This document shows, piece by piece, positions 1,288-24,259 of a stretch of 64,000 nucleotides of DNA. Below the pieces are notes generated by a model. It did no database searches, was not told where the DNA came from, and was given only the letters and a program-made list of their open reading frames with translations. The stretch is from NCBI GenBank assembly GCA_934096605.1, contig CAKOMI010000002.1, positions 789 through 64,788 on the forward strand, read 5' to 3'. Each line of letters begins with the position of its first letter. The first letter of the stretch is position 1. The position numbers and the translations under genes were made by a program. The DNA comes from an uncultured Bacilli bacterium. Lineage in GTDB: Bacteria; Bacillota_I; Bacilli_A; RF39; UBA660.

Positions 1288-4153
1288 AAAGAAGAAAAAA
1301 GTAAAGTTAGTAGTTTTACTTGTAAGTGTATTATGTTTATTTATGGGTGCTTCTTATGCGTATTGGTTAATGACGGCAACACAAACAGAGACTAATATAG
1401 CCAGTAGTAAATGTTTTAAAGTAAGCATTACTAATGAAAGCGATGCAATAAGCATAACAAAGGCTCATCCTGTAACAGATGAGGAAGGCTTAAAAGAAAC
1501 TGGATATTCTTTTACTATTCAAAATACATGTAGTACTTATGCTGCTTATCAGGTCAATCTAGAAGATATACTAGATGATGAAATAACTAAAAGATTAAGT
1601 AATAAATATATTAAACTATCTTTAAATGGTAGTACGCCAAGAGTATTAAGTAATTATACTAAAGTAAGTCCTACCATCGATGATGCTGATGCCTCATTTA
1701 AATTAACTAGTGGCTCTCTTGCGCCAAATGGGGAAGATGGGGACTCAGTAGACTATAACTTAAAACTATGGATGGATTATGATACACCAGCTATAGATGA
1801 AACTATGAGTGCCGCTTTTAAAAGTAAAATTAGTGTTATTGCAAGTTATATTGAAGAAAATGATTTAACAAATGAAATAACAATTGCTTATAATTCCAAA
1901 ACAACTGATTATAGTAAAGATAGTGAAACAATAGATATAAATGCCACGAGTACTAACTATAATTTAATAGAGTATAGTAGTGATAATGTAACTTACACAA
2001 GTATTGATACGCCTAGTAAAGATGTTACTCTAACTAAGACGTATACAGAAGATAAAGATGAAACTATTTATTTTCGTGATGAAATGGGTAATTTAAAAAG
2101 TGAAAATGTTGTTCTATCTAAGTTAGATAAGACAGGACCCGTTATAACAGTTACAGCTTCAAGTGACTGGGGTTCAAGTAATACAGTAAATATCACTTTA
2201 GAAGATGAAAAATCAGGTCTTGCTGGCTACGCTTTAACAGAGACAGAAATTGAGCCTAGCGAATGGACAAATGTTACTGGAAAAAGCACAACTATAACTA
2301 AAGACGTTACTAGTAATAAAAAATATTATGTTTATGCTAAAGATGCTTTAGGTAATATTAGTCATAAAGACGTTGAGGTAAGCCATGTTGATACTACTGC
2401 ACCAACAATTGTTAGTTTAACAGAACAAAGTAGTTATGGGGCAACAAGCACAATAACTGCCGTAGCAAAAGACACAGAGTCTGGTATAACAGGTTATGCA
2501 TTCACTGAATCTAGTACAGAACCCACTAGTTGGACAAGTGTAGACAATGTCATAACTGAAAGTACTTATACTTATAAGGCAACAAAGAATGGTACAATAT
2601 ATTTCTGGGTAAAAGATGGGTCAGGACATAAAATAAATAAGACAATAACTGTTAGTAAAGTAGACGCGACAGCTCCAACCGTAACACTTAGTTTAAGCGA
2701 TGAAACAACTTGGACTAAATCAAAAACATTAACAATGAATTTTAGCGATAATGATTCTGGACTAGCAGGCTATGCAGTTACAACTACAGAAACAACACCA
2801 ACTGCATGGACAAGTATAAGTGGAACAAGTGTAAGTAAAACACAGACAATAACAACTAATGGTACATATTACGTATGGACAAAAGACAATGCTGGATTAG
2901 TAAGTCATGTTAACAAAACAATATCTTATATTGATATCACAGCACCAACAGCAAGTATGACATTAACAAAAACAAGTAATTCAATAACAGTTGATGCAAG
3001 TAAGTCTAGTGATACTGATAGTGGTATAGCAAAGTATGAATATAGTATTGATAATACAACATATTATTCTTCAACAAGTTCAACATATACATTTACTGGT
3101 CTAAGTGTTGGTACTTATACTATATATTTAAGAGTTACAGATAATGCTGGAAATGTGGAAAATACTACCGCTCAAGTAGCTATCACAATACCATTAACAA
3201 CAAAAATTACACAATTAGCAGCAACCGATACAAAGAAATTAGTAACCGATGATTATGGTAACATAAGATATGTTGGTGGTAGTCCGAATAACTATGTAAG
3301 TTTTGATGGCGATATATGGCGTATTATAGGTGTCATGAAAGATGTTGATGATGGTACAGGCAATAAAGAAGATCGTGTAAAAATAATAAGAAACGATGCA
3401 ATAGGTGGTTACTCATGGGATACAAGTGAATCAAGTATCAATAATGGTAAAGGTGTAAACGAATGGAGCCAGGCAGACTTAATGAAACTATTAAATCCAG
3501 GCTATGAAAGTGAAACTGTAGGTGGATCATTATATTGGAATAATAAATCAGGAACATGTTACTCATCTAAAAACAATGGTACAAAAGCTTGCGATTTCGC
3601 AAGTACAGGTATAAAAGACAAATTAAAAAATATGCTAGGTAATGCGGTATGGAATACAGGAAGTCAAGGAACTGCATCATGGTATAACAGTAGTGGAGGA
3701 TTAACAAAACATTTTTATACATATGAAAGAAGTGAAAATACAGGAAAAATATGTACAAGTGGAATTTATTGCACAGACACGGTATCAAGAACAACAACAT
3801 GGACAGGAAAGATAGGCTTAATGTATCCATCAGATTATGGCTATGCAACAAGAGCGGCAGACCGCGCAACATGTTTAAATAAAGAATTATTAAATTGGGA
3901 TGATAGTAGTGTAAGTGGTTGTAAATATAATGATTGGCTATTAAATGTAAATGGTAGCGGTCAATGGACATTATCGCCGCATGCTGACTCTTCCGATGCT
4001 GACTATGTGTTCTATGTGTACATTGTTGGCAACGTCCGCATCGCCAATGCGTGCAGCAGCAACGCCGTCCGTCCCGTCGGTTATCTGTTATCGAATACGT
4101 TGGTCCAAAGCGGAGATGGCAGCTCAGGAAATCCTTATACGCTATCAAATTAA
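1271..4153 (+). CDS. large surface protein: SipW-type signal, TasA-like N-domain, four Ig-like repeats, C-terminal lectin-like (DUF1566/CLec-like) domain
   Basis: 960-aa ORF. The N-terminus (KKKKKVK, then a hydrophobic span ending GASYAYW) resembles SipW-cognate TasA/camelysin-type signals (..GGTxAYFxD). Four ~90-aa tandem repeats follow. The C-terminal ~300 aa are clearly homologous to ORF 20166..21470, with shared runs WRIIGVMK, ADLMKLLNPGYESE, VGGSLYWN and YPSDYGYAT, and end ..VRPV....G.G...NPY. Confidence 0.8.
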   Translation: MVRVDKKKKKVKLVVLLVSVLCLFMGASYAYWLMTATQTETNIASSKCFKVSITNESDAISITKAHPVTDEEGLKETGYSFTIQNTCSTYAAYQVNLEDILDDEITKRLSNKYIKLSLNGSTPRVLSNYTKVSPTIDDADASFKLTSGSLAPNGEDGDSVDYNLKLWMDYDTPAIDETMSAAFKSKISVIASYIEENDLTNEITIAYNSKTTDYSKDSETIDINATSTNYNLIEYSSDNVTYTSIDTPSKDVTLTKTYTEDKDETIYFRDEMGNLKSENVVLSKLDKTGPVITVTASSDWGSSNTVNITLEDEKSGLAGYALTETEIEPSEWTNVTGKSTTITKDVTSNKKYYVYAKDALGNISHKDVEVSHVDTTAPTIVSLTEQSSYGATSTITAVAKDTESGITGYAFTESSTEPTSWTSVDNVITESTYTYKATKNGTIYFWVKDGSGHKINKTITVSKVDATAPTVTLSLSDETTWTKSKTLTMNFSDNDSGLAGYAVTTTETTPTAWTSISGTSVSKTQTITTNGTYYVWTKDNAGLVSHVNKTISYIDITAPTASMTLTKTSNSITVDASKSSDTDSGIAKYEYSIDNTTYYSSTSSTYTFTGLSVGTYTIYLRVTDNAGNVENTTAQVAITIPLTTKITQLAATDTKKLVTDDYGNIRYVGGSPNNYVSFDGDIWRIIGVMKDVDDGTGNKEDRVKIIRNDAIGGYSWDTSESSINNGKGVNEWSQADLMKLLNPGYESETVGGSLYWNNKSGTCYSSKNNGTKACDFASTGIKDKLKNMLGNAVWNTGSQGTASWYNSSGGLTKHFYTYERSENTGKICTSGIYCTDTVSRTTTWTGKIGLMYPSDYGYATRAADRATCLNKELLNWDDSSVSGCKYNDWLLNVNGSGQWTLSPHADSSDADYVFYVYIVGNVRIANACSSNAVRPVGYLLSNTLVQSGDGSSGNPYTLSN
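2126..3190 (+). repeat. four tandem ~270-bp coding repeats (Ig-like domains) inside ORF 1271..4153
   Basis: Protein repeats begin DKTGPVITV / DTTAPTIVSL / DATAPTVTLSL / DITAPTASMTL. Each contains D-x-[DE]-SG[LI]xGY and a later Y[YF][VW].(K/T)D..G motif. Confidence 0.7.
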
Positions 4154-5052: not shown

Positions 5053-5772
5053 TTAGCCTCCTATTATAGTACTACTTAGTAAAACTAGTAATAGTGATAA
5101 AGAATTATGCATGACGTGAGTTATAGTACTTGTGAAAATTGTTTTGGTTTCAATATAACTTTTGGCAAAGAAATAACCGATACCACTATAAGGGATAATA
5201 TAAAGTAGTTGTAGTAAGTTAATGCTAGTTCCGGCTACAAAAGCATTTAATAAGTGGGCTCCACCAAATAATAGAGATGTTATTATCATGAAAGCTTTAT
5301 CGTTTGGTATAGCTTCTCTAAAGTTTTTTCTAAATAGTACTTCTTCAATAAAAGGACCTATTAAAGCCATGCTTATTATAGAGAATATTGGCATTTCATT
5401 TACAATTGAACGATTAAGAGTTTCATTGGTAGCCATATCACCAACAATGGAAAGAATTAAAGAATTACTTATAAACATAAATAGTAAGGCTAGTAACCAA
5501 TTTTTTAAACCGATTTTAAAGAAGGATTTAAAATTCTTTTTATAAAGAATGAATTCTTCTTTTAAAGATTTATGATAAAAAATATAAATTACTAGTAAAG
5601 TTAAAATATATATAATGGTATAGGCTATTATGTAGATAAGTCTATTTTGAAGGTCTAGTTTTAATATAGAGAAGAGATAGGCTGTTACATTTGGAATAAT
5701 AATCATGTAACTTAGTAGTATAGCTATGCTTCTAAGAATTGTTTTGGAGTTTATTTTTTTCAAATTAATCAC
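5053..5772 (-). CDS. CPBP-family intramembrane glutamic endopeptidase (CAAX protease-like)
   Basis: Polytopic. Motifs EEVLFR (EExxxR), FGGAHL (FxxxH) and HVMHN (HxxxN). Confidence 0.85.
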   Translation of the reverse strand: MINLKKINSKTILRSIAILLSYMIIIPNVTAYLFSILKLDLQNRLIYIIAYTIIYILTLLVIYIFYHKSLKEEFILYKKNFKSFFKIGLKNWLLALLFMFISNSLILSIVGDMATNETLNRSIVNEMPIFSIISMALIGPFIEEVLFRKNFREAIPNDKAFMIITSLLFGGAHLLNAFVAGTSINLLQLLYIIPYSGIGYFFAKSYIETKTIFTSTITHVMHNSLSLLLVLLSSTIIGG

Positions 5773-5857
5773 ATTCTTTCTATTTAAATAATATCATAAT
5801 TTTTTTTTCTTTACAATGTAATCATTTCTTTTTATAATAAACTTAGGGTGAATTAAT

Positions 5858-6022
5858 TTGAAAAAAGATATTAAAGATATTGTTAATAGTAGAGGTATGT
5901 TTATTTTATTAAGTATTTTAATAACTTTTGTTTTTATATATTTTTCTGTTCCACATTTTTTTCCAAGAGAAAAGATTGAGGCTTTAGTAGAAAGAATGAA
6001 TGTTTTTGAAAAAAATAGTTAG
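5858..6022 (+). CDS. possible small membrane protein (54 aa, TTG start), not in ORF track
   Basis: RBS-like agggtga lies 7 nt upstream of the TTG. Translation is LKKDIKDIVNSRGMFILLSILITFVFIYFSVPHFFPREKIEALVERMNVFEKNS, with one TM. A hairpin terminator follows directly. Confidence 0.3.
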   Translation: MKKDIKDIVNSRGMFILLSILITFVFIYFSVPHFFPREKIEALVERMNVFEKNS

Positions 6023-6023
6023 A

Positions 6024-6054
6024 AAGTGATTTCACACAATTGAAATCACTTTTT
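6024..6054 (+). terminator. intrinsic terminator
   Basis: Stem aagtgatttca / tgaaatcactt with 6-nt loop, followed by ttt. Confidence 0.5.
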
Positions 6055-6068
6055 AAATGTGCTAAAAT
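6040..6068 (+). promoter_or_regulatory. sigma-A-type promoter for the 6100..15057 operon
   Basis: TTGAAA (6040-6045), 17-nt spacer, TAAAAT (6063-6068), preceded by TGc (extended -10). Confidence 0.4.
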
Positions 6069-6099
6069 CATGATATGAGATTGATTAGAGGTGATTTAT

Positions 6100-6858
6100 G
6101 TGCGGAAAGGAAAGCAAATTCTTTTTCTTGTATTTGCTTTAACGGTGATGATGAAAGGTGTTAATGCTGAGTGTGACTATGAAACACAAGTGAAATTAGC
6201 AACAGAAGCTTCAAATGTTAAAACAAATTATGAGGTTAAAGATATTGTTATTAATTGGCAAACTGGTGAAGAGGTAACAGGTGTTACGGAAGACGAGATT
6301 GACGATGGAAGTGAATATGTTTTGGCAAAGAAAGTTATGGTTTCTTTATATAATATTACTAGCAATATGGTTGTTACTATTACTGATGGTGATGGAATGA
6401 ATGAGGAAGTCACTTATGAAGAAACTGATAATGGCACTTATACTTTTGATGGTGGTAAGTTAGAAAATATTATAAATTATGATATTAAAATAACTACTAA
6501 TAATCCAAGTTGTTCTGGTGATGAACTTAGAACACTTAACTTACAAACACCTAAGATAAATGATTATCATTATCTTACAGCTTGTGAAGGAGTAGACGAT
6601 TATTATTGCCAAGAATTTATAGATTTTGATTTGAATATGAGTGAAGATGAGATTATATCAAAAGCGCTACTTAAAAGAGATGGACAAACTAGCGATAATC
6701 AAAATACAGATGAAAATAAAAGTTGGTTTGATAATGTAAAAGAATATTTAAAGAAACACCAATGGATAGTGTTTACTACTATTGGAGGAATCATATTAAT
6801 AGCAGGGGTTGCTACTACCGTGATTATAATTAAAAAACGGAGGAGTAAAGTTTTATGA
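6100..6858 (+). CDS. Cys-containing secreted protein with C-terminal membrane anchor
   Basis: GTG at 6100 sits 5 nt after gaggtga; the track start 6091 lies inside the RBS. Sec signal ..MMKGVNA/EC, then a C-terminal TM plus KKRRSK stop-transfer. The stop overlaps the next start (ATGA). Confidence 0.7.
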   Translation: MRKGKQILFLVFALTVMMKGVNAECDYETQVKLATEASNVKTNYEVKDIVINWQTGEEVTGVTEDEIDDGSEYVLAKKVMVSLYNITSNMVVTITDGDGMNEEVTYEETDNGTYTFDGGKLENIINYDIKITTNNPSCSGDELRTLNLQTPKINDYHYLTACEGVDDYYCQEFIDFDLNMSEDEIISKALLKRDGQTSDNQNTDENKSWFDNVKEYLKKHQWIVFTTIGGIILIAGVATTVIIIKKRRSKVL

Positions 6859-9800
6859 GAAAGAAATATTTATTATTTATATTGATATTTATAGGGATTT
6901 TAACAATTCCTGGTGTAGCTAATGCAGAACTTAGTTGTGATGCATATTATAGCATTGCTAAGTCTGGGTGTACTGTATTAAATTTAAATGGTGAATCATA
7001 TGGTATGAATACTTATGATGCTGGTGGACTTAAGACATATTGCCTTGATCCAACTAAAACAAGTGGTCTAAAAAAAGGAGGACAAAGCATTTCTGCAAAA
7101 TGTTTTAGAAGAATTGATCCTTCTAGTAAGGGTATTTATCAAGCTTATGATGTGGCTGTTACAAAAGCTTATCAAATGCTTACTGACCAAGGAAGAAATA
7201 CAAATTCGGGAGCTGATAAAGTTTTGGGAGAAATAGTTTTCAGATGGCTTGGATCTTATTATTACTTGGTTGATACTAAAGCTTCATTTCCTAGAACACC
7301 TGTCTGTGGTACGGGTGGAAAAATCGATTCTGGAACTATTTTGAATATCTTTAATCCTAATAATTATGGCAAATACTGGAGTGGTTCAGCTTATGGCGAT
7401 TCTGCCACTGCATATTCGATTTTTAATGTTGCAATAAGTGCTGGAGATCGTATTAGTAAACAAGGTGCAACTTATGAACAACTTATTTCTGATGGAACTA
7501 TTTGGGGTGATAAATACACTGTTAATTCTGTAACTCAAGAAAGTGAAGGAACTAATGTTGATCGTATTACTATTAATTTGAGTTTGGATACTGATGTACA
7601 AACTGTCAATTGGTCAGAGTTTACTGGTGGATGTGATAATAACGGAGTTGTTTGTACTACTGAAAGTGCTGTTCCAAGTGGTAATGGGGTTACTGTTACG
7701 ATTAATGTTAAAAAAACTAATAAATATAATGGCGAAGATTATAAGGTCTATGTTCAAACCTCAATATATGATACCCGTTCTTCTTCAGCTAACATGATTA
7801 TTGTTAGACCTAATAAATATGTACAAAGTTTTTTACTTGTTTCTGATTCTACTAGGAGTATTTTGTCTGGTGGTAGTAAGGTATACGTTACCTCTACTCC
7901 TGGTAATTCAACTGGTGGTGGCAAATGTAGAATAGAAAAAAATACTTATTATTGTAATGACGGACAACCTTGTAGTGAACCAGAGTATCGTGCTGATTGC
8001 GATAAGCCAAAAATTAATTGTACACCTGCAATGACAATGCCTTCAAGTTGTAATAACTTTGACGCTGAGAATGAAACTACTGGTATAATAAGTGATATTA
8101 ATGAGGTTAATAGTAGTTGTAATACTACTGGTGTAAATCAAGTTAAAAAATGTGTTCTTGGACATAATGATTTAACTAATACGTCTTTTGAATCAACTAC
8201 TGAATTGAGTGGTAATGATTATTGCAAAGTTTACTGTAAAGAAAAATATACATTTAATGTTCCAACAGCTAAAATAACAAGGAGTGGTGGATATTTCACT
8301 TTATCTACTACTATTAATGGTGAAAGAGATTGTTATGTTGCTAGTGCTGATGAAACTGCAGCTAGAGAAGGGGCCGGTATTGATACTGTTAAATTTAAGG
8401 CAGACTTAATTGAAAAATCACATGCGGTTATTGATGCTTATAATGAATACTCAAAATGGAAAGCAGCTGCTGAAAAAGATTCTGATTCAACAAAGATTCA
8501 AAATTCTACACAATATTATTCTTCTGGAACGCAGGGAGTAAAATGCCATTCTGGTCATAGCTCTGCTACACAATATTTCAAGGATTGGGAGTATATTAAA
8601 TATTCTTATTCAGGTGTTGCTTCTAAAGAATTAGATAGTTATAGAAGTGGAAGCTGTCATGAATGTAATTGTACTGAGGGTACTAATAAGGATTCAGAAC
8701 ATAAATCTAATCGAGATACTGCATATGGTGATCTTAAAGCTAAATTAGCAGAATTAAATGAAATTATTCAACAATACAATAGTTGTTCTGGTGCAGTAGA
8801 TAATAGTACGCTTGATGCTTTAACAAGTAGTCTTACTACACAAAGAGCAACCTCTAATAATGATACAAGTTGGTCTAATAATATGCAATTTGATCCAAAA
8901 GTAACATTTAAATATAATGAAGCCTATAAGGATCAAATTAATGGGGAGTTTGTTCAAAAAAGTAAAACTACTGGTGGTAGTGAAACTTATTGCTCTGGCA
9001 ACATAAATGATAACTATATTTGTGATAATGGTGGTTCTTCTAGTGTTCAAACTACAACAACTAATACTGTTATTTGTAATACTAATGGATGCCAACCAGT
9101 AACTGTTAATATAAGTAATGCAAATTTTGTTCAAAAAACAAAAGAAGCAAGTGCTACTTATGAGCCAGATCATGATTTTGCAACATATACTCCTTATGGA
9201 ACTATAAAGTTTAAAAATCCGGCTTGTAAAGGTAATGATTGTTTATGGAGTAAATTACCAGAAAATGCTTTACCTGTTTCAATGATAACTAAGACTGGTG
9301 TATTCCCATTTGTTATTAACTTTAGTAATATTGGTCAAGATAATAAAACTGGGGCTTTAGGTCGACTTATGGGAGCTTCTACAAGTGTTTTAACAGAATA
9401 TGATAAATTAGATGATAATGTAAGATGCCCAAAAGGTAGTACGTCTGAAACTATGAGTCAAAATGCTGGATATGTTTGTCATTATTTGACAAATTGTGAT
9501 AACTGTAAATTTACATGTACAGATAAAAATAACTGCAAATTCATTCAACGTGAATGTACTGGTGATAAGTGTACATTAACTTGTAAGAACTGCTTATTTG
9601 ATGGCAAAACAAATAACTTTACATATCGTACAGTATCTGTAAATAATTTGAATCCAAATACACGTAGCCTAGGTTATAACTGGTCAAATGTTAAAGGTGA
9701 AGCAACTAAGAAAGAAATTGAAACAACTAGTGATACTATTTATGAAAAACCGCAATATTCTTATACTCTTACACCAACTAATTTGAAAAATATTCGTGAT

Positions 9801-10121
9801 TATAATGATGATGCTGGTTCATATACCAATGCTGAGGTTCCAAATAGTGTTTCAGCTAAAGTTGATGGTAATGCTTCACTTTATTGTGAAACTATGGATT
9901 ATAATGGAGTTTCTAATGGTGTTACCTACAAGTGCCGTAGTCGTTTCCTTGATTTAATTGAAAAGACTGGTAAAAAATATTCAACAAGTTCTTATCGTAT
10001 TACTAGTGATAGTAATGAAGGAACAGATGCTTATGAGTCATTTGATAAATGTTCTTCTGGTTATGGTAACGGAAATTGTAAATATATAGGACCTTCATGG
10101 CGTATTAAGGAGGTTAACTAA
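6855..10121 (+). CDS. large Cys-rich secreted protein (1088 aa), candidate pilus-associated adhesin
   Basis: Sec signal ..IPGVANA/E. Dozens of Cys, including the cluster CDNCKFTCTDKNNCKFIQRECTGDKCTLTCKNC. Translationally coupled on both sides. No family recognised. Confidence 0.75.
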   Translation: MRKKYLLFILIFIGILTIPGVANAELSCDAYYSIAKSGCTVLNLNGESYGMNTYDAGGLKTYCLDPTKTSGLKKGGQSISAKCFRRIDPSSKGIYQAYDVAVTKAYQMLTDQGRNTNSGADKVLGEIVFRWLGSYYYLVDTKASFPRTPVCGTGGKIDSGTILNIFNPNNYGKYWSGSAYGDSATAYSIFNVAISAGDRISKQGATYEQLISDGTIWGDKYTVNSVTQESEGTNVDRITINLSLDTDVQTVNWSEFTGGCDNNGVVCTTESAVPSGNGVTVTINVKKTNKYNGEDYKVYVQTSIYDTRSSSANMIIVRPNKYVQSFLLVSDSTRSILSGGSKVYVTSTPGNSTGGGKCRIEKNTYYCNDGQPCSEPEYRADCDKPKINCTPAMTMPSSCNNFDAENETTGIISDINEVNSSCNTTGVNQVKKCVLGHNDLTNTSFESTTELSGNDYCKVYCKEKYTFNVPTAKITRSGGYFTLSTTINGERDCYVASADETAAREGAGIDTVKFKADLIEKSHAVIDAYNEYSKWKAAAEKDSDSTKIQNSTQYYSSGTQGVKCHSGHSSATQYFKDWEYIKYSYSGVASKELDSYRSGSCHECNCTEGTNKDSEHKSNRDTAYGDLKAKLAELNEIIQQYNSCSGAVDNSTLDALTSSLTTQRATSNNDTSWSNNMQFDPKVTFKYNEAYKDQINGEFVQKSKTTGGSETYCSGNINDNYICDNGGSSSVQTTTTNTVICNTNGCQPVTVNISNANFVQKTKEASATYEPDHDFATYTPYGTIKFKNPACKGNDCLWSKLPENALPVSMITKTGVFPFVINFSNIGQDNKTGALGRLMGASTSVLTEYDKLDDNVRCPKGSTSETMSQNAGYVCHYLTNCDNCKFTCTDKNNCKFIQRECTGDKCTLTCKNCLFDGKTNNFTYRTVSVNNLNPNTRSLGYNWSNVKGEATKKEIETTSDTIYEKPQYSYTLTPTNLKNIRDYNDDAGSYTNAEVPNSVSAKVDGNASLYCETMDYNGVSNGVTYKCRSRFLDLIEKTGKKYSTSSYRITSDSNEGTDAYESFDKCSSGYGNGNCKYIGPSWRIKEVN

Positions 10122-10564
10122 TGAGAGAATCATATTGGGGTTATTGGATAATCTTACTTGGTATATTTGTTATTGTAATAATGATGCTTGTATCAAATGT
10201 TACGACCACAAATACACAAGATTATTATCTTATTAAAGAGGTTACGGAAGCTTCAATGGTAGATGCGGTAGATTTATCTTACTACCGTACTACTGGCGAA
10301 CTTAGAATAAATTCTGATAAGTTTGTGGAAAGCTTTTTAAGAAGATTTGCAGAAAACGTAGAAATGAATACTTATCAAGTTGATTTCTATGGTATATATG
10401 AAGCTCCTCCTAAAGTAAGTGTTAAAGTTACTACTAAGAGTGCAACATATTCTGTAGCGTCTGATTCTACGTCTTTTGATATTACTAATAAAGTAGATGC
10501 AATATTAGAACTTAATGGTGTTGTAGAAGATTCTGGATCACAGGATAATAATATTACACCTTAA
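10121..10564 (+). CDS. pseudopilin-like protein (TadE/TadF size class) with MRESYWG leader
   Basis: Start overlaps the previous stop (TAATG). The N-terminus MRESYWG-YWIILLGIFVIVIMML parallels the N-termini of ORFs 38246 and 38755. Confidence 0.55.
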   Translation: MRESYWGYWIILLGIFVIVIMMLVSNVTTTNTQDYYLIKEVTEASMVDAVDLSYYRTTGELRINSDKFVESFLRRFAENVEMNTYQVDFYGIYEAPPKVSVKVTTKSATYSVASDSTSFDITNKVDAILELNGVVEDSGSQDNNITP

Positions 10565-10579
10565 TAAGGAGGAATGAAA

Positions 10580-11422
10580 ATGGGGAATATTCTCGTAAAA
10601 GTAAAAAGATTTTTAAGTAACAAGAATACTGTAACAATACTATGTGTTTTAGCAGGTATTCTTGTTCTTTATATTGGTTATAATTGGCGAGTTAAGTCAG
10701 CGACTGAACCAATTCGTATACCTTATGCCAAGACTGCTTTAGCTTCAAGACATAAAATTACTCGTGATGATATTGGATATATGGAGGTTAGTGGTACTGT
10801 TGTTAGTAAAATGGGTAACGTTATACGTAATCAAAATGAATTGATTGATAAAGAGGTTACTTATGGTAATACTATTCAGCAAAATGCTTTTTTCTTTAAA
10901 GGGGACGTTGAAGAGGCTTCTTCTAATAAAGGAACAAGTTCACTACTTTCAAATATTTCTGATGGTTATACGTTAGTTTATTTAGACGTTGACTTACATA
11001 GTACTTTTGGTAATGCTATATATCCTGGTAATTATATTGATTTATGGTTTGAAGGAAAAGACGAAAATGGGCGTTATATATATGGTAAGTTTATTCAAAG
11101 TATAAAAGTACTTGATGTTACTGATAGTGATGGTAATTCTGTTTTTGAAACAGGTAGTGAAAGTAGAACACCAGCACAGCTATTATTTGCAGTGCCAGAT
11201 GATTTGAAATCATTACTTGAAAAAGCTAAATTGGTCGGAAAATTAATACCAGTTCCTAGAAATAAAAGCTATTCACAAAATCCTGGTGCTACTGAAGTGG
11301 CTAGTTCTTATCTAGAAAATTATATTATCGCTAAATCAGCTATTATTCCTGATGAAAATATAACTGATAATACTGATGAGAATGATGATACACTAGAGAG
11401 TGATGGTGATACTAATGAATAG
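10580..11422 (+). CDS. cpaB: Flp pilus assembly protein CpaB/RcpC-like (SAF domain), paralog 1
   Basis: ATG 10580 lies 7 nt after AAGGAGG. N-terminal TM, then a SAF-like segment (IRIPYAKTALASRHKITRDDIGYMEV), then ..GYTLVYLDVD..GNAIYPGNYIDLWF..IKVLDV..AQLLFAVPDD..L..AK.VGKL.PVPRN. This matches the CpaB architecture. Confidence 0.75.
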   Translation: MGNILVKVKRFLSNKNTVTILCVLAGILVLYIGYNWRVKSATEPIRIPYAKTALASRHKITRDDIGYMEVSGTVVSKMGNVIRNQNELIDKEVTYGNTIQQNAFFFKGDVEEASSNKGTSSLLSNISDGYTLVYLDVDLHSTFGNAIYPGNYIDLWFEGKDENGRYIYGKFIQSIKVLDVTDSDGNSVFETGSESRTPAQLLFAVPDDLKSLLEKAKLVGKLIPVPRNKSYSQNPGATEVASSYLENYIIAKSAIIPDENITDNTDENDDTLESDGDTNE

Positions 11423-12239
11423 TACTTTAACTAAATTAAAAAGATTTATAGGTAATAAAAATACAGTTACTATTTTGTGTGTTATTGCAGGGGTTGTTGT
11501 TTTATACGTAGGTTATAATTATCGTGTAAAATCGAAAATTAATCCAACTACTGTACCTTATGCTAAAGTTAAATTAGAAGCTAGACATGTTATTACTGCT
11601 GATGATATTGGTTATATGGAAGTTAATAGTGACGTCATTAATAAGAGTACTAATTTAATTAAAAATGCTAAAAGCTTAATTGGAATGGAGGTTACTTATG
11701 GTAATACCATCCAACAAAATAGTTTGTTTTATACTGGTGATTTAACAGAAGCAACATTATCACCAGATTATGTTTTAAGTGATATTGAAGATGGTTATAC
11801 GGCATTCTCTTTAAGTGTTGATACTTATACTACTTATGGTAATGCGATTAAGAAAAATAACTATATTGATTTATGGTTTAATGGTACTGATGATAGTAAA
11901 AAAATAATTTATACTAACTTAGTTAAAAGTATTAAAGTTTTAGACGTAAGAGATGCCTCTGGTGTTTCTTTAGATAATCCAAGTAGTACTGGTGAACCAG
12001 CCGAATTATTATTTGCTGTACCAGATGACTTATATGTATTGCTTGTAAAAGCACTTAATGTGGGTAAATTAGAGCCTGTTCCTAGAAATGCTAACTATAC
12101 GGCTAAGCCTGGAGAAACGCAAGTTGTTAGTGACTATGTTAAGGATTATATTTTATCTAAATCAGTAACTATTCCAGAAGATAGTACTAATAGTAGTGAT
12201 AATACTGATGCTACTGATGAAACTGATATTACAGAATAA
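11415..12239 (+). CDS. cpaB: CpaB/RcpC-like protein, paralog 2 (tandem duplicate)
   Basis: Collinear with the previous ORF (KRFIGNKNTVTILCV.., GNTIQQN, NYIDLWF, IKVLDV, ELLFAVPDDL, PVPRN). Likely start MNSTLTKLKRF at 11415. Confidence 0.75.
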   Translation: MNSTLTKLKRFIGNKNTVTILCVIAGVVVLYVGYNYRVKSKINPTTVPYAKVKLEARHVITADDIGYMEVNSDVINKSTNLIKNAKSLIGMEVTYGNTIQQNSLFYTGDLTEATLSPDYVLSDIEDGYTAFSLSVDTYTTYGNAIKKNNYIDLWFNGTDDSKKIIYTNLVKSIKVLDVRDASGVSLDNPSSTGEPAELLFAVPDDLYVLLVKALNVGKLEPVPRNANYTAKPGETQVVSDYVKDYILSKSVTIPEDSTNSSDNTDATDETDITE

Positions 12240-12256
12240 GAATAAGGGGTGATATA

Positions 12257-13363
12257 ATGAATGATGCTGTATTTTCTCAATTAGATTTTGGACCTCTAGA
12301 AGAGTTTTTAAGAGAAGATAATGTAACTGATATCTCCTATACTAATGGAGGACAGGTTTGGTTAAAGACATTAGATAAAGGTGTGTATCAAGTTGATCGC
12401 CCAGAGATAAATAATGCTTTAATGGAAAAGTTAGCATTTCAATGTGCTAATGTTATGGGTAAGACTTTTAATATGGCCCATCCAATGCTCGATGCTGAAA
12501 GTGCAGAGTTACGTCTTAACTTTATACATGATTCTATTGCTACAAATGGCATAGCGTGTGTTATAAGAAAGACGCCAGCCAAAATCAGATTAAATAAAGA
12601 AAAGTTATTAAATGAAAAATATGTTACAAAATCTATTCATGAGTTTTTAATGAAATGTGTTGAAGGACACGCCAATATTATCGTAAGTGGTGAGACTGGC
12701 TCAGGTAAAACAGAACTTGTTAAATATTTAGCTAGTCATATTAAAGAAAATGAAAAGATTATTACAATTGAAGATACACTAGAACTACACTTGGATAGAA
12801 TATTTCCACACCGTGATATTGTAGCTTTAAAAACAAATAATATTGCTAGTTATAGTGACGTTTTAGTGGCTTGTATGCGACAAAACCCAATTTGGATATT
12901 ACTTTCAGAGGTTCGTTCAGCGGAAGCCGTTATGGCGGTTCGTAACTCGATATCTTCTGGACACCACATCTTATCAACCATCCACTCAGATAAAGCAAGT
13001 TTAATTCCGATGCGTATGTTTTCTTTGATTGAAAGTAATATTGACGTTGAACAATTCGTTACGACAATCCATCGTTATGTACAAATTGGTATTTATGTTA
13101 AAGGTTATATGAGTAAGGAACTAGGTAGATTTCAACGTGAGATTTTAGAGGTATGTGAATTTTACGTAGATGAACATAATAAACCACAAGTAAATACAAT
13201 TTATAAAAAGACTTTAACTGGTGATATTACAATGAATAATCCAACTAAGTATTTGAGAGATTATTTAGGAATAAGTGGTATTATTCTTGATGATGACATC
13301 TTTAAATTGGACGAAGGAGCTGTTGATACCAAGGCTCCAGTAGGGTCCATAGAAACACTTTAG
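12257..13363 (+). CDS. tadA: TadA/CpaF/VirB11-family secretion ATPase
   Basis: Walker A GETGSGKTE, Asp box IITIEDTLEL, Walker B/His box region ..ILLSEVR....SGHHILSTIHS. This is the T2SS/T4SS 'E' ATPase fold. Confidence 0.85.
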   Translation: MNDAVFSQLDFGPLEEFLREDNVTDISYTNGGQVWLKTLDKGVYQVDRPEINNALMEKLAFQCANVMGKTFNMAHPMLDAESAELRLNFIHDSIATNGIACVIRKTPAKIRLNKEKLLNEKYVTKSIHEFLMKCVEGHANIIVSGETGSGKTELVKYLASHIKENEKIITIEDTLELHLDRIFPHRDIVALKTNNIASYSDVLVACMRQNPIWILLSEVRSAEAVMAVRNSISSGHHILSTIHSDKASLIPMRMFSLIESNIDVEQFVTTIHRYVQIGIYVKGYMSKELGRFQREILEVCEFYVDEHNKPQVNTIYKKTLTGDITMNNPTKYLRDYLGISGIILDDDIFKLDEGAVDTKAPVGSIETL

Positions 13364-13372
13364 AGGTGGCGT

Positions 13373-14269
13373 ATGATAGAACTTTTATTACTTGTTGGTC
13401 TTGCTGTTTTTGCTCTTAGTTATAGGTTTAATAATGGTGAGAATGTTTATAAATTCTTTGTTACACAAGTAAGTTCTGCATATGATAAATATGCTCCTTA
13501 CTCATTTAAAGAGGTAAGAAAGAAAACTAAGGAACTTGGTCAAGAGTATACAGCTAAACAATATATAGCTCAAGTTGTTGTGTTTGCCGTGGTGGCTTTT
13601 GGTATTACATATTTATATTTTTATAACATTATTATTGCAATTATTTATGCTTTAATTGCTATTGCTTTTATTCCTTATTTAGCTTATTTAAGATGCCAAA
13701 AGGTTTATAGTGAATTTATTTTTGAACAAATTCAAATTTACACGACTAATGTTATTATGGAATTTAATACCACACAGAGTTTTGTTAAATCCTTAGAAGG
13801 TGTTAGAGACTCAGGTATATTAGAAGATCCAGTTTTAAGTGATGTTAAAACAATGATTGATATGTCTTATCAAAATGGTACAATTGATGAATCAGTAGAG
13901 TTTTTTAATCATAAATATCCTTTTTATATGGTTAAGAATATGAATCAATTATTCTTACAAATTACTAAGGAAGGTGCGAAAGACTCAGGACAAGCCCTAG
14001 AAAATATGTCTTTAGATATCGATGCCTTAGTAGAAGGTGTTTATAGAGACCAAATTGATAGAAAAGAGTTTCATCGAAGATTTGTTACATTTGGACTTGC
14101 CTTATTCCTACTTGTTATGGCAATGCAGTTTTTGCTCGGAACGGACTCTTATATTGAGTTACTTGATAATATTTTTGTTCAGCTAATTTTACACGCGATT
14201 ATTATTATTAACTGTTTCTTCTTAGTTAGTGGTGAAAAATTCTACTATGAAGATGTGGGGGTGGAATAA
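13373..14269 (+). CDS. tadB: TadB-like polytopic membrane platform protein
   Basis: Immediately follows the ATPase. It has N- and C-terminal TM clusters flanking a soluble helical domain, the T2SS-F-like topology. Assignment rests on position and topology only. Confidence 0.55.
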   Translation: MIELLLLVGLAVFALSYRFNNGENVYKFFVTQVSSAYDKYAPYSFKEVRKKTKELGQEYTAKQYIAQVVVFAVVAFGITYLYFYNIIIAIIYALIAIAFIPYLAYLRCQKVYSEFIFEQIQIYTTNVIMEFNTTQSFVKSLEGVRDSGILEDPVLSDVKTMIDMSYQNGTIDESVEFFNHKYPFYMVKNMNQLFLQITKEGAKDSGQALENMSLDIDALVEGVYRDQIDRKEFHRRFVTFGLALFLLVMAMQFLLGTDSYIELLDNIFVQLILHAIIIINCFFLVSGEKFYYEDVGVE

Positions 14270-15057
14270 TGTATTGGGAGGTTTTTGCACTAGCTGCAAT
14301 CTTATTATTTGCTCTTAATTATACTGGTAAGATTAGTGCTAATAGGTTTGTGTCTGATAATGAAGTATATTTTCGAAAATTAAAAGAAAGTGATTGGGAT
14401 TTTTATGTTAAAGCTCGTTATGGTGATACTGTAAATCCAGATTTTCTATTTAACAAACGAATTAAAAATGGGTTAGTAACCATTGTTGTTATGTTATGTT
14501 TTTTTATTTCTAACTTGTCATACATTACTATTTTATTCAGTGTTTTAGCAGGTTTCTTAGTATTTAAACTTGATTATTCTAATATTAAAAAATACTATAA
14601 AAGACATTTAAGTGAAATAGATTCAATGTTACCACATTATTTAAAAAGTTTAGAGATTTTGATTCAACACTATACAGTTCCAGTGGCACTTGGTAAAAGT
14701 ATTGAAGATGCTCCACCTATATTTAAAGAAGGATTACAAGAATTAATAACCCAAATTAATGAAGGGGATGATTCAATTAATCCATACATGCAATTTGCTA
14801 GAACTTATCCAGTAAGGGATTCAATGCGAATGATGCGTCTTTTGTATCGTTTATCATTAGGTCGTCAAGAACATAAACAAGAACAATTACTAACATTTTC
14901 GAAGACTATTTCTAATTTACAACAAAAAGCGCGTGAATTAAAATATAAACAACGTCTTGAGAAGATGGAAGGTAAAACAATGAAAATGTTAATTACTACA
15001 GGTTTAGGGGTTATGATTTTGCTAGTCTTTGCGGTTTTAATGATGATGAATATGTAA
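14269..15057 (+). CDS. tadC: TadC-like polytopic membrane platform protein
   Basis: Start overlaps the previous stop (TAATG). Topology is similar to the previous ORF. Last gene before the terminator. Confidence 0.55.
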   Translation: MYWEVFALAAILLFALNYTGKISANRFVSDNEVYFRKLKESDWDFYVKARYGDTVNPDFLFNKRIKNGLVTIVVMLCFFISNLSYITILFSVLAGFLVFKLDYSNIKKYYKRHLSEIDSMLPHYLKSLEILIQHYTVPVALGKSIEDAPPIFKEGLQELITQINEGDDSINPYMQFARTYPVRDSMRMMRLLYRLSLGRQEHKQEQLLTFSKTISNLQQKARELKYKQRLEKMEGKTMKMLITTGLGVMILLVFAVLMMMNM

Positions 15058-15082
15058 GAGGAAAAAATCCTCTTTTCTTTTT
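15057..15082 (+). terminator. intrinsic terminator ending the pilus motor operon
   Basis: agagga-aaaaa-tcctct followed by tttcttttt. Confidence 0.6.
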
Positions 15083-15128: not shown

Positions 15129-15854
15129 ATGACTTTTGGCTATGAGCTTGAATTTTGTGGTGCTTCATTAAGTAAATTAACGGAAATACTAAGAGTTAAC
15201 CTTAAAACAAAAACGTCTAAAATTAATTATCAAAATTTTAATTTAATGACTGAGGTTGGTGTTACTAACGAAAAATATGCAGGCGGTGAACTTATTTCAC
15301 CAATTTATACGGATTTACAATTATGTCTTAAAGAACTTAAAGATAAACTGATTTTCTTAAAAGATAATGGGGCATATATTCCTTTAAATTCTTCAATGAC
15401 AGGCTTTCATATTCATGTAGGAAAAGATATTTTGGTTAATCAAAAACATTATGAACATTTACTTAAATTCTTATATGCTTTTGAATATGAAATATATGAG
15501 TTAGCTTGCTATGGCAAGATAATAAGATCTAATTTTTGGAATAATGCTCATCCTTTAGATTTTAACGATATAATTGGCTTTCTTGCTAATTATCCTAGTA
15601 CAACTATCTTTAGTTCTAAGAAAAATGCTTTTAGAATCGATAGAGAAACCTATGAACTTCGTTACTTTAATAGTTCCCTTGTTTATAGTGAGCTTGAAAG
15701 TGCTTTATATTTTGCTACACAACTTAGTCAATATGTTGTAAGTGATAACTTTGATACGGAGAGAATTGAACGATATTTTCAAAATAGAGATTACTATGGA
15801 AAAAGATATAATTATGATCGGGATGAGTTTATGCGAAGAGAATTAAAGTTATAA
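15129..15854 (+). CDS. amidoligase-family enzyme (Amidoligase_2, glutamine-synthetase-like fold)
   Basis: N-terminal FGYELEF (G-x-E-x-E), GGELISPIY, and TGFHIHVG, matching the motif series of the putative amidoligase family. Confidence 0.6.
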   Translation: MTFGYELEFCGASLSKLTEILRVNLKTKTSKINYQNFNLMTEVGVTNEKYAGGELISPIYTDLQLCLKELKDKLIFLKDNGAYIPLNSSMTGFHIHVGKDILVNQKHYEHLLKFLYAFEYEIYELACYGKIIRSNFWNNAHPLDFNDIIGFLANYPSTTIFSSKKNAFRIDRETYELRYFNSSLVYSELESALYFATQLSQYVVSDNFDTERIERYFQNRDYYGKRYNYDRDEFMRRELKL

Positions 15855-15918: not shown

Positions 15919-16173
15919 ATGAAAAAAATATCTATTACTGATTATAATAAGAATATGGGTACATTGATTGATTTGTCCAGTCCACAAGATTTTATCATTA
16001 GTCATGATCCTGATGCAGTAAATATTCCTTATCAAAAATTTATGCTATATTATGATGGCTATTTAAAGAAGGATAAACCTTATTTCTTTATTTGTTCAAA
16101 AGGTGTTCATAGTGCCAAAGTAGTTGGTATGCTTGAATATTTTGGGTATAATGTGACACAAGTTTTACATTAA
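15919..16173 (+). CDS. single-domain rhodanese-like sulfurtransferase
   Basis: ~84 aa. Active-site loop FFICSKGVHS (Cys loop) followed by ..LEYFGY. ATG 15919 lies 5 nt after aggtga. Confidence 0.65.
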   Translation: MKKISITDYNKNMGTLIDLSSPQDFIISHDPDAVNIPYQKFMLYYDGYLKKDKPYFFICSKGVHSAKVVGMLEYFGYNVTQVLH

Positions 16174-16243
16174 ATAAGACTTGTGTTTTTCTTTTTCTTG
16201 CATAGTATACGTTTGTTTGGTATCCTTATACTGGAGGTTAGTT

Positions 16244-17326
16244 ATGGAATATGTAATTATAGGGTTACTTGTAATAGTAATTGTATGTTTAATTGTGGTA
16301 CTTTTAAAAGTAGAAAAAAATACGAAAGGAGATCAAACTGTTAGTGCAGAACTTTTAAAATTTCAAAATGAACTTACAAAAGAAATAGGAGACTTTAAGT
16401 ACGAGTTTAGTGATAAGTTAATGAAAGATTTTAATACTTTAAATGATCGCATTGAATACCGACTTAATTTAATGAATGAAAAAGTTAATACTAGGTTAGA
16501 TGAAAATTTTGATAAAACTAATAAAACTTTTGCAAGTGTGTTAGAGAGACTATCAAAGATTGATGAAGCACAGAAGAAAATAGATAGTTTGTCGACTGAC
16601 ATTGTGTCTTTACAGAGTGTTTTAACTGATAAAAAAACAAGAGGTATTTTTGGCGAGGTTAATTTAAATTATATTTTAACAAGTGTTTTTGGCGAGAATA
16701 ATAGTAAAATATATGAAATTCAATATAAGTTAAGTAATGGTTTTATTGCAGATTCAATATTGCATGCGCCAGAGCCACTTGGTAATATTTGTATTGATTC
16801 TAAGTTTCCTTTAGAAAATTATGAGAGAATGACTAATAAGTCTTTATCATTAAAAGAAAGAGAAGATGCGACTAAATCTTTTAAAGCAGACGTTAAAAAA
16901 CATATTGAGGCTATATCACATAAGTATATAATACCTGGTGAAACGGCTAATCAAGCTATTTTATTTTTACCAGCTGAAGCCATTTTTGCAGAGATTAATG
17001 CTTATCATCCGGATTTAATAACAGAAGCTTATAATAAAAGAGTGTGGATTACATCGCCAACTACTTTAATGAGTACTTTAACAACTATTAATATGATTAT
17101 TAAGAATATGGAAAGAGATAAGTATGCTAAGGTTATTCAGGAAGAATTAGTTAAATTAGCAATTGAATTTAACCGTTATAAAGAAAGATGGGATAAGTTA
17201 TCAAGAAGCATTGATTCCGTAAGCAATGACGTTAGAGATATTCATATTACAACTGATAAAATTACAAAACGATTTGATGCAATTAACCAAGTAGAGATGC
17301 AGACTTTAGAAAATAAAGAAAAATAA
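16244..17326 (+). CDS. rmuC: DNA recombination protein RmuC
   Basis: N-terminal TM, a long coiled coil, and the conserved C-terminal RmuC core (..RGIFGEVNL..IL, DSKFPLENY, ILFLPAEAIFAE, VWITSPTTLM). ATG 16244 follows ctggagg. Confidence 0.85.
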   Translation: MEYVIIGLLVIVIVCLIVVLLKVEKNTKGDQTVSAELLKFQNELTKEIGDFKYEFSDKLMKDFNTLNDRIEYRLNLMNEKVNTRLDENFDKTNKTFASVLERLSKIDEAQKKIDSLSTDIVSLQSVLTDKKTRGIFGEVNLNYILTSVFGENNSKIYEIQYKLSNGFIADSILHAPEPLGNICIDSKFPLENYERMTNKSLSLKEREDATKSFKADVKKHIEAISHKYIIPGETANQAILFLPAEAIFAEINAYHPDLITEAYNKRVWITSPTTLMSTLTTINMIIKNMERDKYAKVIQEELVKLAIEFNRYKERWDKLSRSIDSVSNDVRDIHITTDKITKRFDAINQVEMQTLENKEK

Positions 17327-24236: not shown

Positions 24237-24259
24237 ATACAATTAAACAGGTGATACGT

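Follow-up and report, generated by a model that had tools for sequence, protein, structure and literature searches.

Which kind of machine is encoded by a compact set of genes in an uncultured Bacilli bacterium, and why is the set headed by genes for two cysteine-containing exported proteins, one of them of giant size? The genes lie between positions 6100 and 15057 of the 64,000-nucleotide stretch of DNA analysed here (positions 789 to 64,788 of contig CAKOMI010000002.1), which is referred to as the window and is low-GC DNA (~28%) of a Gram-positive spore-former. They had been described from the sequence, in what is called here the original prediction, as a nine-gene operon coupling two Cys-rich secreted proteins to a Tad-like motor. 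The answer favoured by the present analysis is that they probably encode, in a monoderm, the machine for a divergent filament of Tad-like (type IVc-like) kind, with an operon led by a head module. That the motor is one of a type IV filament is well supported by the family of its ATPase, by the predicted GspF fold and the paralogy of its platform proteins, by the CpaB-like proteins, by pilin-type N-termini and by the synteny of the pilin genes and a gene at the tadZ position. The giant protein, g2, would be a tip adhesin presented by a DUF5411 protein and minor pilins, with the product of the first gene as its membrane partner.

Operon layout and collection of relatives

The operon at 6100-15057 consists of the following genes, with protein lengths in amino acids (aa).

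g1, 6100-6858, + strand: membrane-anchored cysteine-containing protein, 252 aa
g2, 6855-10121, + strand: giant Cys-rich secreted protein, 1088 aa
g3, 10121-10564, + strand: DUF5411 protein, 147 aa
g4, 10574/10580-11422 (two candidate starts), + strand: CpaB/RcpC-like protein, 282/280 aa
g5, 11415-12239, + strand: second CpaB/RcpC-like paralog, 274 aa
g6, 12257-13363, + strand: secretion-type ATPase, 368 aa
g7, 13373-14269, + strand: polytopic platform protein, 298 aa
g8, 14269-15057, + strand: second platform protein, 262 aa

The operon is real. As had been predicted, the genes are all co-oriented on the + strand and separated by overlaps or by gaps of no more than 17 nucleotides (nt). The g1/g2 junction is ATGA and the g2/g3 and g7/g8 junctions are TAATG, g4 and g5 overlap by 8 nt, and the remaining gaps measure 9 nt (g3/g4 and g6/g7) and 17 nt (g5/g6). 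Shine-Dalgarno motifs were found upstream of the starts. The predicted count of nine genes did not hold, since 6100-15057 contains eight; possible ninth genes are a 54-aa open reading frame (ORF) upstream at 5858-6022 or an Amidoligase_2 gene at 15129-15854, beyond the terminator.

Relatives of the locus were gathered with an ATPase pattern; in a collection in which each species is represented by a single genome, 564 stretches matched it. The matched genomes were all metagenome-assembled genomes of uncultured gut bacteria, carrying the labels Bacilli, Tenericutes, Mycoplasma sp. CAG:776, Clostridium sp. CAG:609 and Candidatus Ventrenecus. The ORFs of 85 loci from ~80 species (L-numbers below denote loci) were classified using family hidden Markov models (HMMs). 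Sporulation genes occur both in the window (dacB and spmA/spmB at 24251-26411, cotJB/cotJC-like genes at 58383-59412) and in the relative L009 (SpoIVA, 16113-17741), and because of them the public labels 'Tenericutes' and 'Mycoplasma sp.' are misleading.

The motor genes

The g6 product was matched by PF00437 (T2SSE) with E=1.4e-27 and 96.8 bits against a cut-off of 24.9. Its best NCBIfam score was obtained on the VirB11 model TIGR02788 (E=1.6e-35, 122.7 bits against a cut-off of 249.95), the TadA-type model TIGR03819 gave E=3e-29, and the scores on PRK13900 and PRK13851 were far under their cut-offs. Among proteins of solved structure the best sequence matches were CpaF (5e-18), VirB11 (4e-17) and the archaeal FlaI (1e-16). 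The Walker A motif (GETGSGKT) is invariant in the alignment, as are the residues of the Asp-box, Walker B motif and His-box (ED, E218 and H236/H243). The protein is 77-100% identical over 83 loci. Judged by these comparisons g6 is unambiguously predicted to be a hexameric T2SSE-family ATPase of the TadA/CpaF-VirB11-FlaI group, about equidistant from the three, and the earlier call of a VirB11/CpaF-type ATPase was upheld. As a member of the VirB11 family proper it fails the curated cut-off, and it is flanked by CpaB-like and GspF-fold genes.

The two genes preceding the ATPase had been assigned to tandem CpaB/RcpC paralogs. The TIGR03177 (CpaB) model matched g5 over residues 24-243 (E=2.2e-11, 43.5 bits) and g4 over residues 20-241 (E=1.3e-4, 21.3 bits), and the Pfam RcpC model gave 26.6 bits for g5 and 22.9 bits for g4; the assignment as CpaB-like is supported by TIGR03177 matches that are significant over nearly the full length, yet lie under the curated cut-offs of 71 bits for TIGR03177 and 28.8 bits for RcpC. 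The g4 protein has an N-terminal transmembrane (TM) helix and is 52-54% identical to g5 orthologs. One or two copies of CpaB-like genes are present in relatives, and in a distant variant of the system (L086) the RcpC match carries no mark of being weak or faint.

The last two genes are a different case. Neither g7 nor g8 was matched by T2SSF (PF00482) or any other family in Pfam or NCBIfam, or by PDB sequences using phmmer, and a 23-sequence profile of g8 also found no match among PDB sequences. An exhaustive search of 1.84 billion proteins gave 10 distant full-length platform relatives, none with a Pfam match, and when a platform profile was searched against 5.8 billion proteins every homolog listed was 'hypothetical' and lacked a Pfam domain. 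The AlphaFold (AF2) model of g7 had a predicted local distance difference test score (pLDDT) of 80 and a predicted template modelling score (pTM) of 0.67. The top Foldseek matches to this model were the cytoplasmic domains of EpsF (2vmb_B, 3c1q_B, 2vma_B) and OutF (5nbg_B), with probabilities of 0.90-0.96, TM(target) scores of 0.70-0.74 and a root-mean-square deviation (rmsd) of 2.8-3.0 A over 111-117 columns; the E-values of ~1.5-3 are due to the shortness of the matched domain. Comparison of the g7 and g8 families by hhalign gave E=3.4e-5 and a probability of 72% over 125 columns, and in all 85 loci the two stand as separate single-domain proteins directly 3' of the ATPase. We therefore accept g7 and g8 as two paralogous platform proteins of predicted GspF fold, on the modelled fold and paralogy and not on sequence. 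The TadB/TadC calls of the original prediction failed in all profile searches, and are kept only on the EpsF/OutF fold match of the g7 model and on the paralogy of g8 to g7.

The proposed head module

The g1 product is a type I membrane protein: its Sec signal peptide (VNA|EC) precedes an ectodomain, which is followed by a C-terminal TM helix and then a tail reading KKRRS. Its four Cys residues (C25, C138, C162 and C170) are all invariant in the alignment, which agrees with the predicted membrane-anchored Cys protein. No Pfam or NCBIfam family was found for g1, and the gene was detected in 73 of the 85 loci, the remainder being mostly truncated contigs.

The g2 product contains 43 Cys (4.0% of its residues), 23 of which are invariant over 45 homologs, together with a Sec signal peptide and no membrane anchor, as expected for the 1088-aa Cys-rich secreted protein that had been predicted. 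No Pfam or NCBIfam domain was found in it. Its AF2 model had a pLDDT of 71 and retrieved nothing at E<=1e-3 from the PDB or from BFVD (viral folds); matches to MHC, COPI and archaellin folds were set aside as noise, with TM-scores of <0.1 on the query. Compared with PilY1 and TadG, g2 has no vWA domain and no beta-propeller, and its N-terminus is Sec-type and not pilin-type. The missing domains make it less likely that g2 is a PilY1, but not that it acts as PilY1 does.

The g3 product belongs to DUF5411 (PF17424, E=7.4e-58, 194.7 bits against a cut-off of 30, residues 1-131). Its N-terminus is pilin-like, reading MRESYWG|YW followed by a TM helix, and the leader M(K/R)ESYWG| is conserved. The description of this protein as a pseudopilin with an unusual leader holds for the N-terminus but not beyond it, the family being DUF5411 and pilin-like there only. 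No significant homology to the two larger pilin-like proteins encoded downstream (pp1 and pp2, below) was detected past the N-terminal helix (hhalign probability 2.9%).

Co-inheritance and conservation

The order g1, g2, DUF5411, CpaB, ATPase, g7, g8 showed no variation in the 85 loci. In every locus that extends as far as g2, the position is taken by a giant Cys-rich ORF (median 3.5% Cys), and this includes five loci in which the HMM detected none. A g1 homolog and the giant ORF were in place wherever the sequence of the loci extends, so the predicted coupling of both proteins to the motor is borne out, and independent assortment of the Cys-rich and motor genes is refuted because the g2 position is always filled. 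That an operon joining a giant protein to a motor would be atypical was not supported for this clade, in which the arrangement is an invariant rule.

Conservation differs greatly along the system. Median identity to the window was 81% for the ATPase, 70% for g7/g8 (69% for g8), 65% for the TadZ-like protein, 60% for DUF5411, 51% for the pilins, 45% for CpaB, 30% for g1 and 27% for g2, which is most variable in its N-terminal third. The ATPase is at least 77% identical across the ~80 species while flanking genes drop to 35-38%, and in L012 it is 91% identical to that of the window compared with 74% for the housekeeping protein Tex (50849-52972). More than 100 assemblies have an ATPase identical to that of the window.

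Four species have the whole g1-g2-g3 triad in duplicate next to a single motor, and the g2 copies are only 35-41% identical to one another. The duplicated triads lie at the following positions.

L016, 2-9111
L053, 2-9148
L049, 2447-8378 and 13188-18312
L066, 2280-8373 and 13379-14637

Duplication of the triad as a unit is the strongest evidence that g1-g2-g3 form a cooperating exchangeable module, and it suggests that the g2 copies are alternative heads.

A membrane-anchored thioredoxin (PedC-like; PF00085, E=1.5e-11) is encoded divergently upstream of g1 in 11-14 loci and also adjoins the remote variant of the system; examples are found on the - strand at 2838-3278 in L004, 2212-2694 in L052 and 8717-9118 in L086. 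No thioredoxin-like gene was detected among the ORFs of the window or in its closest relatives, which for the window matches the earlier statement that a thiol-oxidoreductase gene is missing there. Metallophosphoesterase and Rce1-like genes stand upstream of the cassette in 15-26 loci. Just upstream of this pair in the window, at 1271-4153, there is a gene for a 960-aa protein with PKD and Y_Y_Y domains, which is kept in the strain-level relatives L087-L090. A mobile origin of the cassette was considered and rejected, given its conserved flanks, vertical-looking divergence and a GC content like that of the surroundings.

The downstream pilin module

The components of a Tad-like system that are missing from the operon had been placed ~22 kb downstream, as genes for pilin, TadZ and a signal peptidase. 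Pilin genes and a TadZ-like gene were indeed found there, but the peptidase is SipW-type. The genes of this module are listed below.

37726-37971 and 37988-38230, + strand: two pilin genes, ~80 aa with 4 Cys each, leader MKEATG|ELN and a hydrophobic helix
38246-38758 (pp1) and 38755-39225 (pp2), + strand: pilin-like proteins of 156-170 aa with leader MR(E/Q)AIG|, a TM helix and a globular domain
39234-40271, + strand: TadZ-like protein, 345 aa, at the tadZ position, with a degenerate MinD/ParA-type P-loop

The leader of the small pilins is exactly MKEATGELN in 63 of 77 homologs. These proteins gave a weak match to the archaeal Pilin_N family (E=0.0076) and contain neither an N_methyl nor a Flp motif; in place of the Flp G/XXXXEY motif the conserved Gly is followed by ELN(M/T)TVV, in which position +5 is not Glu and +6 is not Tyr. 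The pp1 and pp2 genes are always paired after the pilins in relatives, no family or PDB match was found for them, and a pp profile searched against the PDB returned only noise. Five proteins (the two pilins, pp1, pp2 and g3) share a short charged leader ending in Gly and followed by a hydrophobic helix, a predicted layout that is that of class III signal peptides, and the leaders would be cleaved after the conserved Gly. The ~80-aa pilins are proposed to be the major filament subunits and pp1/pp2 to be minor pilins.

The TadZ-like gene always follows pp2. The sole match of its product was to CbiA (E=0.007), and no NCBIfam or PDB match was obtained, including with a 23-sequence profile; together with the position of the gene, the CbiA match weakly suggests a TadZ. 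A tRNA-Asn (GTT) gene directly follows on the - strand at 40347-40422 and was the sole Rfam/ARAGORN match in the 64 kb.

The signal peptidase gene at 41214-42197 encodes a SipW/archaeal-type signal peptidase I (TIGR02228, 95.6 bits) and not a prepilin peptidase. It was rejected as a component of the pilus, being near only 2 of the 85 loci. The protein has a long Lys/Glu-rich C-terminal extension, and in L077 a SipW-type homolog (12952-13695) directly follows g8. It could be a dedicated signal peptidase for the Sec-exported g1 and g2. No prepilin peptidase (Peptidase_A24; PilD, TadV, EppA) was found among the scanned ORFs of the window of at least 100 aa, nor was there a recurrent candidate with multiple TM helices in the 85 loci.

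Two ComG-type pseudopilin genes are located at 27302-28251, just upstream of der, with N_methyl matches of E=4e-7 and 7e-9. They probably belong to a second, classical type IV filament system. The presence of these N_methyl proteins therefore implies a PilD/ComC-type peptidase elsewhere in the genome.

The distance between motor and pilins

The pilin module lies ~22.7 kb downstream of the operon, with rmuC, uppP, dacB, spmA/B and der intervening. In the sister species (L001/L005), with an ATPase 99.5-100% identical to that of the window, the arrangement is contiguous and runs from the cassette through an amidoligase, a 533-aa protein and a 160-aa protein to the pilins; in the window ~19 kb separates the amidoligase from the corresponding 539-aa gene. 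Five independent assemblies, 52-126 kb long, show the same junction (amidoligase, rhodanese, rmuC, uppP), and the possibility that the split is an assembly chimera was rejected on that ground. The split that had been judged atypical is therefore real but not exceptional. When the 57 evaluable loci, which have enough downstream sequence, were compared, two pilin genes, two pp genes and the TadZ-like gene directly followed g8 in 28 and were not adjacent in the other 29.

Two lineage-specific genes precede the pilins.

35015-36634, + strand: 539-aa polytopic protein
37131-37643, + strand: 170-aa protein

In close relatives these lie between the cassette and the pilins, and homologs were found only in the window, L001, L002 and L005; the exact 539-aa protein had no match in the assembly index. 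Between the two genes, at 36743-37078, is a C-terminal fragment of thyA (Thymidylat_synt, E=1.7e-22), and a uvrB remnant region covers 43563-47692. The thyA and uvrB remnants mark rearrangements. The uvrB region contains a 112-aa N-terminal fragment, then a 507-aa ORF without a known family (44097-45620), then an apparently complete uvrB (45710-47692). The block that separates motor and pilins contains an AbiEi/AbiEii type IV toxin-antitoxin pair at 22684-24111, with a truncated AbiEii in the strain variants L088-L091.

Neighbouring type IV secretion-like genes

The intervening block ends with a trio of genes resembling those of type IV secretion systems (T4SS).

29723-31912, + strand: 729-aa protein
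31928-32677, + strand: 249-aa TM protein
32718-34979, + strand: VirD4/TraG coupling protein

The coupling protein matched PF02534 with E=2.5e-53. No Pfam match was found for the window copy of the 729-aa protein. A mixed scan that included three of its homologs gave Peptidase_M23 (6e-25), Phage_lysozyme (4e-12) and Peptidase_C39_2 (2e-8), one member each; these matches, for which the scan does not state the matched member, are attributed to the 729-aa family, which may thus be regarded as a putative cell-wall hydrolase. The trio also flanks the locus in L008, L009, L010 and L012. VirD4 and Tex are each 74% identical to their counterparts in L012, and because the divergence of VirD4 equals that of Tex it is considered a core and not a mobile gene.

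T4SS_pilin-like genes follow the system in 42 loci, and 15 of the 22 scanned match PF18895 (best E=1e-5). Arrays of these genes encode proteins with a Cys-rich tail, and a single such gene stands directly after g8 in 13 species. Further downstream a TrbL_4-like polytopic protein and VirB4-like fragments are sometimes encoded. Examples of these neighbouring regions are given below.

L004, 15505-21110
L052, 15508-20473
L055, 15306-21074
L003, 12880-13227

T4SS genes beside the Tad-like locus are a recurrent association, and adjacency alone is no proof of functional coupling.

Candidate expression signals

The candidate expression signals of the operon are located as follows.

5858-6022, + strand: 54-aa membrane-protein ORF upstream of g1, with a TTG start and a Shine-Dalgarno motif
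6023-6057, + strand: perfect 15-bp hairpin followed by a T-run, RNA fold -16.3 kcal/mol
6040-6068, + strand: promoter-like site TTGAAA-17-TAAAAT with an extended -10 TG, 10/12 matches
15056-15074, + strand: terminator-like hairpin at the g8 stop codon, with a T-run to 15084; 7-bp stem with 3 GC pairs, then TTCTTTTTGG

Both the promoter at 6040 and the terminator at 15057 that had been predicted correspond to sites that were found, but sites of both classes occur about as often in shuffled sequence. In the AT-rich region 72 promoter-like sites were observed against 68+/-9 expected, and 3 terminator-like sites against 3.0+/-1.8. The two predicted signals are consistent with the operon claim, and because neither is commoner than in shuffled sequence they are not proof of it.

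The best promoter-like site is the one at 5810-5838, which has 11/12 matches, is better than that at 6040 and precedes the 54-aa ORF. Homologs of this ORF occur at the same position in L001, L005, L006, L007 and L012 (E 4e-10 to 9e-6). It is possibly a leader or regulatory gene, and its membership in the pilus system is uncertain. The right arm of the hairpin at 6023-6057 overlaps the -35 hexamer of the 6040 site, and this hairpin could be a terminator, an attenuator or an operator. The region 5810-6068 as a whole, with a promoter-like site, the 54-aa ORF and a hairpin over the -35 hexamer, may have a regulatory role. Upstream of g1 Rfam, at gathering thresholds, gave neither a riboswitch nor any other known RNA, and an E-value scan of 5600-6200 gave only sub-threshold noise on the hairpin.

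Discussion

The proposed machine would operate in the following way. The g6 hexamer would drive a g7/g8 platform heterodimer, which would pull the ~80-aa Cys-containing pilins from the membrane and polymerise them, while one or two CpaB-like proteins could form a ring or conduit round the growing fibre and the TadZ-like protein could position the machine. The bitopic g1, the Sec-exported g2 and the DUF5411 protein g3 would form a priming or tip complex with pp1/pp2, in which g3 would act as a minor pilin linking g2 to the filament. This complex would present the fast-evolving g2 at the end of the fibre as an adhesin, like PilY1 or the Kil 'Tips'. The placement of g2 at the tip is suggested by its co-inheritance with the motor, the duplication of the triad as a unit, translational coupling and rapid evolution, which is strongest in the N-terminal third of g2. 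We infer likewise that a filament is made, that g2 at its tip binds a ligand and that the Cys residues form disulfides.

Several observations weigh against a Tad-like filament tipped by g2. The g2 protein has an ordinary Sec signal peptide, no pilin domain, no identified adhesin domain and an unmatched fold, and g3 shows no homology with the remaining pilin-like proteins except at its N-terminus. The pilins are without the Flp G/XXXXEY motif, there is no TadV/PilD-type prepilin peptidase in the window or the 85 loci, and the TadZ-like call has almost no support. The platform proteins have no T2SSF sequence-profile match, the Foldseek E-values being ~1.5-3. The ATPase is equally near to VirB11 and CpaF, and genes like those of T4SS often lie nearby. 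All of the organisms are uncultured.

Could the device instead resemble a type II secretion system (T2SS), with g2, perhaps together with g1, as the dedicated cargo of a pseudopilus that pushes it through the cell wall and makes no long fibre? The 120-kDa g2 would then be exported by Sec and oxidatively folded before a short pseudopilus moves it. Like T2SS substrates that leave the cell already folded, g2 has a Sec signal peptide, no anchor and many conserved Cys; its gene is strictly inherited along with those of the motor, relatives carry a thioredoxin gene alongside, and the pilin module stands apart from the motor in about half of the species; a related operon of Clostridia was termed 'secretion-related' by Miller et al. 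(PMC9523054). Against this, the CpaB-like and TadZ-like genes and the two ~80-aa pilins of the abundant type are hallmarks of a Tad fibre, g1 is membrane-anchored, and the duplication of g3 along with g1 and g2 is easier to understand for a complex attached to the filament than for a free cargo. A monoderm would need no secretin-type gate, and a T2SS for folded cargo is not known from Gram-positive bacteria. We consider a secretion device of this kind unlikely. A separate role, as pilus or contact arm in a Gram-positive, chromosomally encoded T4SS for conjugation-like or other DNA transfer, would make g6 a VirB11-type ATPase and g1/g2 adhesins for a mating partner or target cell. The top score of g6 is on the VirB11 model, the solved VirB11 nearly equals CpaF as a match, VirD4 and the 729-aa putative hydrolase lie inside the split of the window and flank four further loci, VirD4 diverges like a core gene, and the T4SS_pilin-like genes of 42 loci may be followed by TrbL_4-like and VirB4-like sequences. 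The GspF/PilC fold of g7, the CpaB-like genes and the pilin genes with class III-type leaders belong to type IV filaments and not to T4SS, however, and no T4SS-like gene occurs within 10 kb downstream in 21 of the 57 evaluable loci, nor any T4SS_pilin, VirB6 or VirB4 homolog in the 64-kb window; adjacency by itself is not evidence of functional coupling, and VirB11 is not known from Gram-positive T4SS. A role as such an arm appears rather improbable.

A pilus for DNA uptake (competence), like the Tad-like system of Micrococcus luteus and with g1/g2 as accessories, was also weighed. Flp/Tad-dependent natural transformation is known in Actinobacteria (PMC4322843), ComEC is encoded ~6 kb downstream of the cassette in L068, and scavenging of DNA or nucleotides might serve a gut lineage with a reduced genome. 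The linkage to ComEC is confined to one locus, however, the separate ComG-type pseudopilins at 27302-28251 make it probable that a classical Com pilus is already present, and known competence pili have no giant, hypervariable Cys-rich protein. A competence function is highly improbable. A more ambitious version of the Tad-like filament would be a clade-wide core chromosomal super-locus, in which a motor with interchangeable heads of g1, g2 and DUF5411, oxidatively folded by the adjacent membrane thioredoxin, and the neighbouring T4SS (VirD4, VirB4-like, TrbL-like and many T4SS_pilin-like proteins) form a joint apparatus for contact-dependent transfer or attachment, and in which pilins are matured without TadV; we regard this as a doubtful extension.

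When the locus was compared with the Tad/Flp pili of Aggregatibacter, Caulobacter and Pseudomonas, a number of features were shared: a T2SSE-subgroup ATPase followed by two adjacent single-domain platform paralogs, a CpaB/RcpC-like gene before the ATPase, very small pilins together with larger pilin-like proteins, and a putative ParA/MinD-like protein at the tadZ position. The window differs in platforms that cannot be recognised by sequence, a short ATPase (368 aa, VirB11-sized), the leader MKEATG|ELN in place of the Flp motif, four Cys per pilin and a CpaB that is often duplicated. It also has no TadV in the locus and no secretin, as a monoderm, and the g1-g2-DUF5411 start has no Tad counterpart. 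VirB11 of T4SS resembles g6 in size (~330-370 aa), in giving its best NCBIfam score and in having T4SS genes as frequent neighbours, whereas g6 reaches 122.7 bits against a cut-off of 250 and sits among CpaB-like genes and platform genes of predicted GspF fold, neither of which is found in T4SS.

Imam et al. 2011 (PMC3244431) catalogued divergent tad-like loci of Gram-positive bacteria that have no Flp pilins, and for Roseburia, Ruminococcus and Eubacterium Miller et al. 2022 (PMC9523054) predicted an operon of 8-9 genes that brings together DUF5411, CpaF, PilC/GspF and a large invasion-like protein. Compared by description, these loci share with the present one a CpaF-type ATPase, a PilC/GspF-like protein, DUF5411, a large surface protein, the lack of a recognisable prepilin motif, hosts among gut Firmicutes and a knowledge that is computational only. 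The window belongs to Bacilli with reduced genomes, its large protein is Cys-rich without an internalin-like or other known domain, and those loci are not described as having a g1 partner, a duplicated triad or neighbouring T4SS genes. A Tad-like cluster of gut TANB77 (Clostridia), in which CpaB, TadZ/CpaE, TadA and TadB/C were recognised mostly by structure (PMC11680825), likewise comes from an uncultured gut Firmicute with a reduced genome and contains several small single-TM pilin-like proteins without a known family; it differs in a fused TadB-TadC (693 aa), an ATPase of 640 aa, another gene order and no reported giant Cys-rich protein. The tip complexes of other pili (PilY1 with the minor pilins of type IVa pili, TadG, and the interchangeable 'Tips' of the Myxococcus Kil Tad pilus; PMC12075869) also comprise a large variable non-core protein beside minor pilin-like genes, in a module duplicated or diversified on a constant motor with a proposed role in customising the fibre end. 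The head described here differs in a g2 without a vWA domain, beta-propeller, pilin domain or fold match and in its bitopic g1 partner, and its place at the tip is the proposed one. Tad-like loci without Flp, a DUF5411 operon, a Tad system recognised by structure and swappable tips are therefore kinds already known. What distinguishes the present system is its sequence-invisible platforms, a nearly invariant leader of non-Flp type, the lack of a prepilin peptidase nearby, a head that is universal and can be duplicated, the exceptional conservation of the motor and the recurrent T4SS neighbourhood.

The RF39-like lineages, carried in databases as 'Tenericutes' or 'Mycoplasma sp. CAG', are common uncultured bacteria of the human and animal gut with small genomes, and this locus is among the most conserved features of the clade, yet is mostly annotated 'hypothetical'. 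Recognising it as Tad-like would widen the known sequence space of TadB/C platforms and provide a candidate colonisation factor with a fast-evolving, modular and disulfide-rich head. The locus would then be a natural system for the swapping of tip modules on a constant motor, and it bears on the folding of a 43-Cys secreted protein in anaerobic Gram-positive bacteria. As T4SS genes recur beside the locus, one may also ask whether the two machines cooperate in these bacteria.

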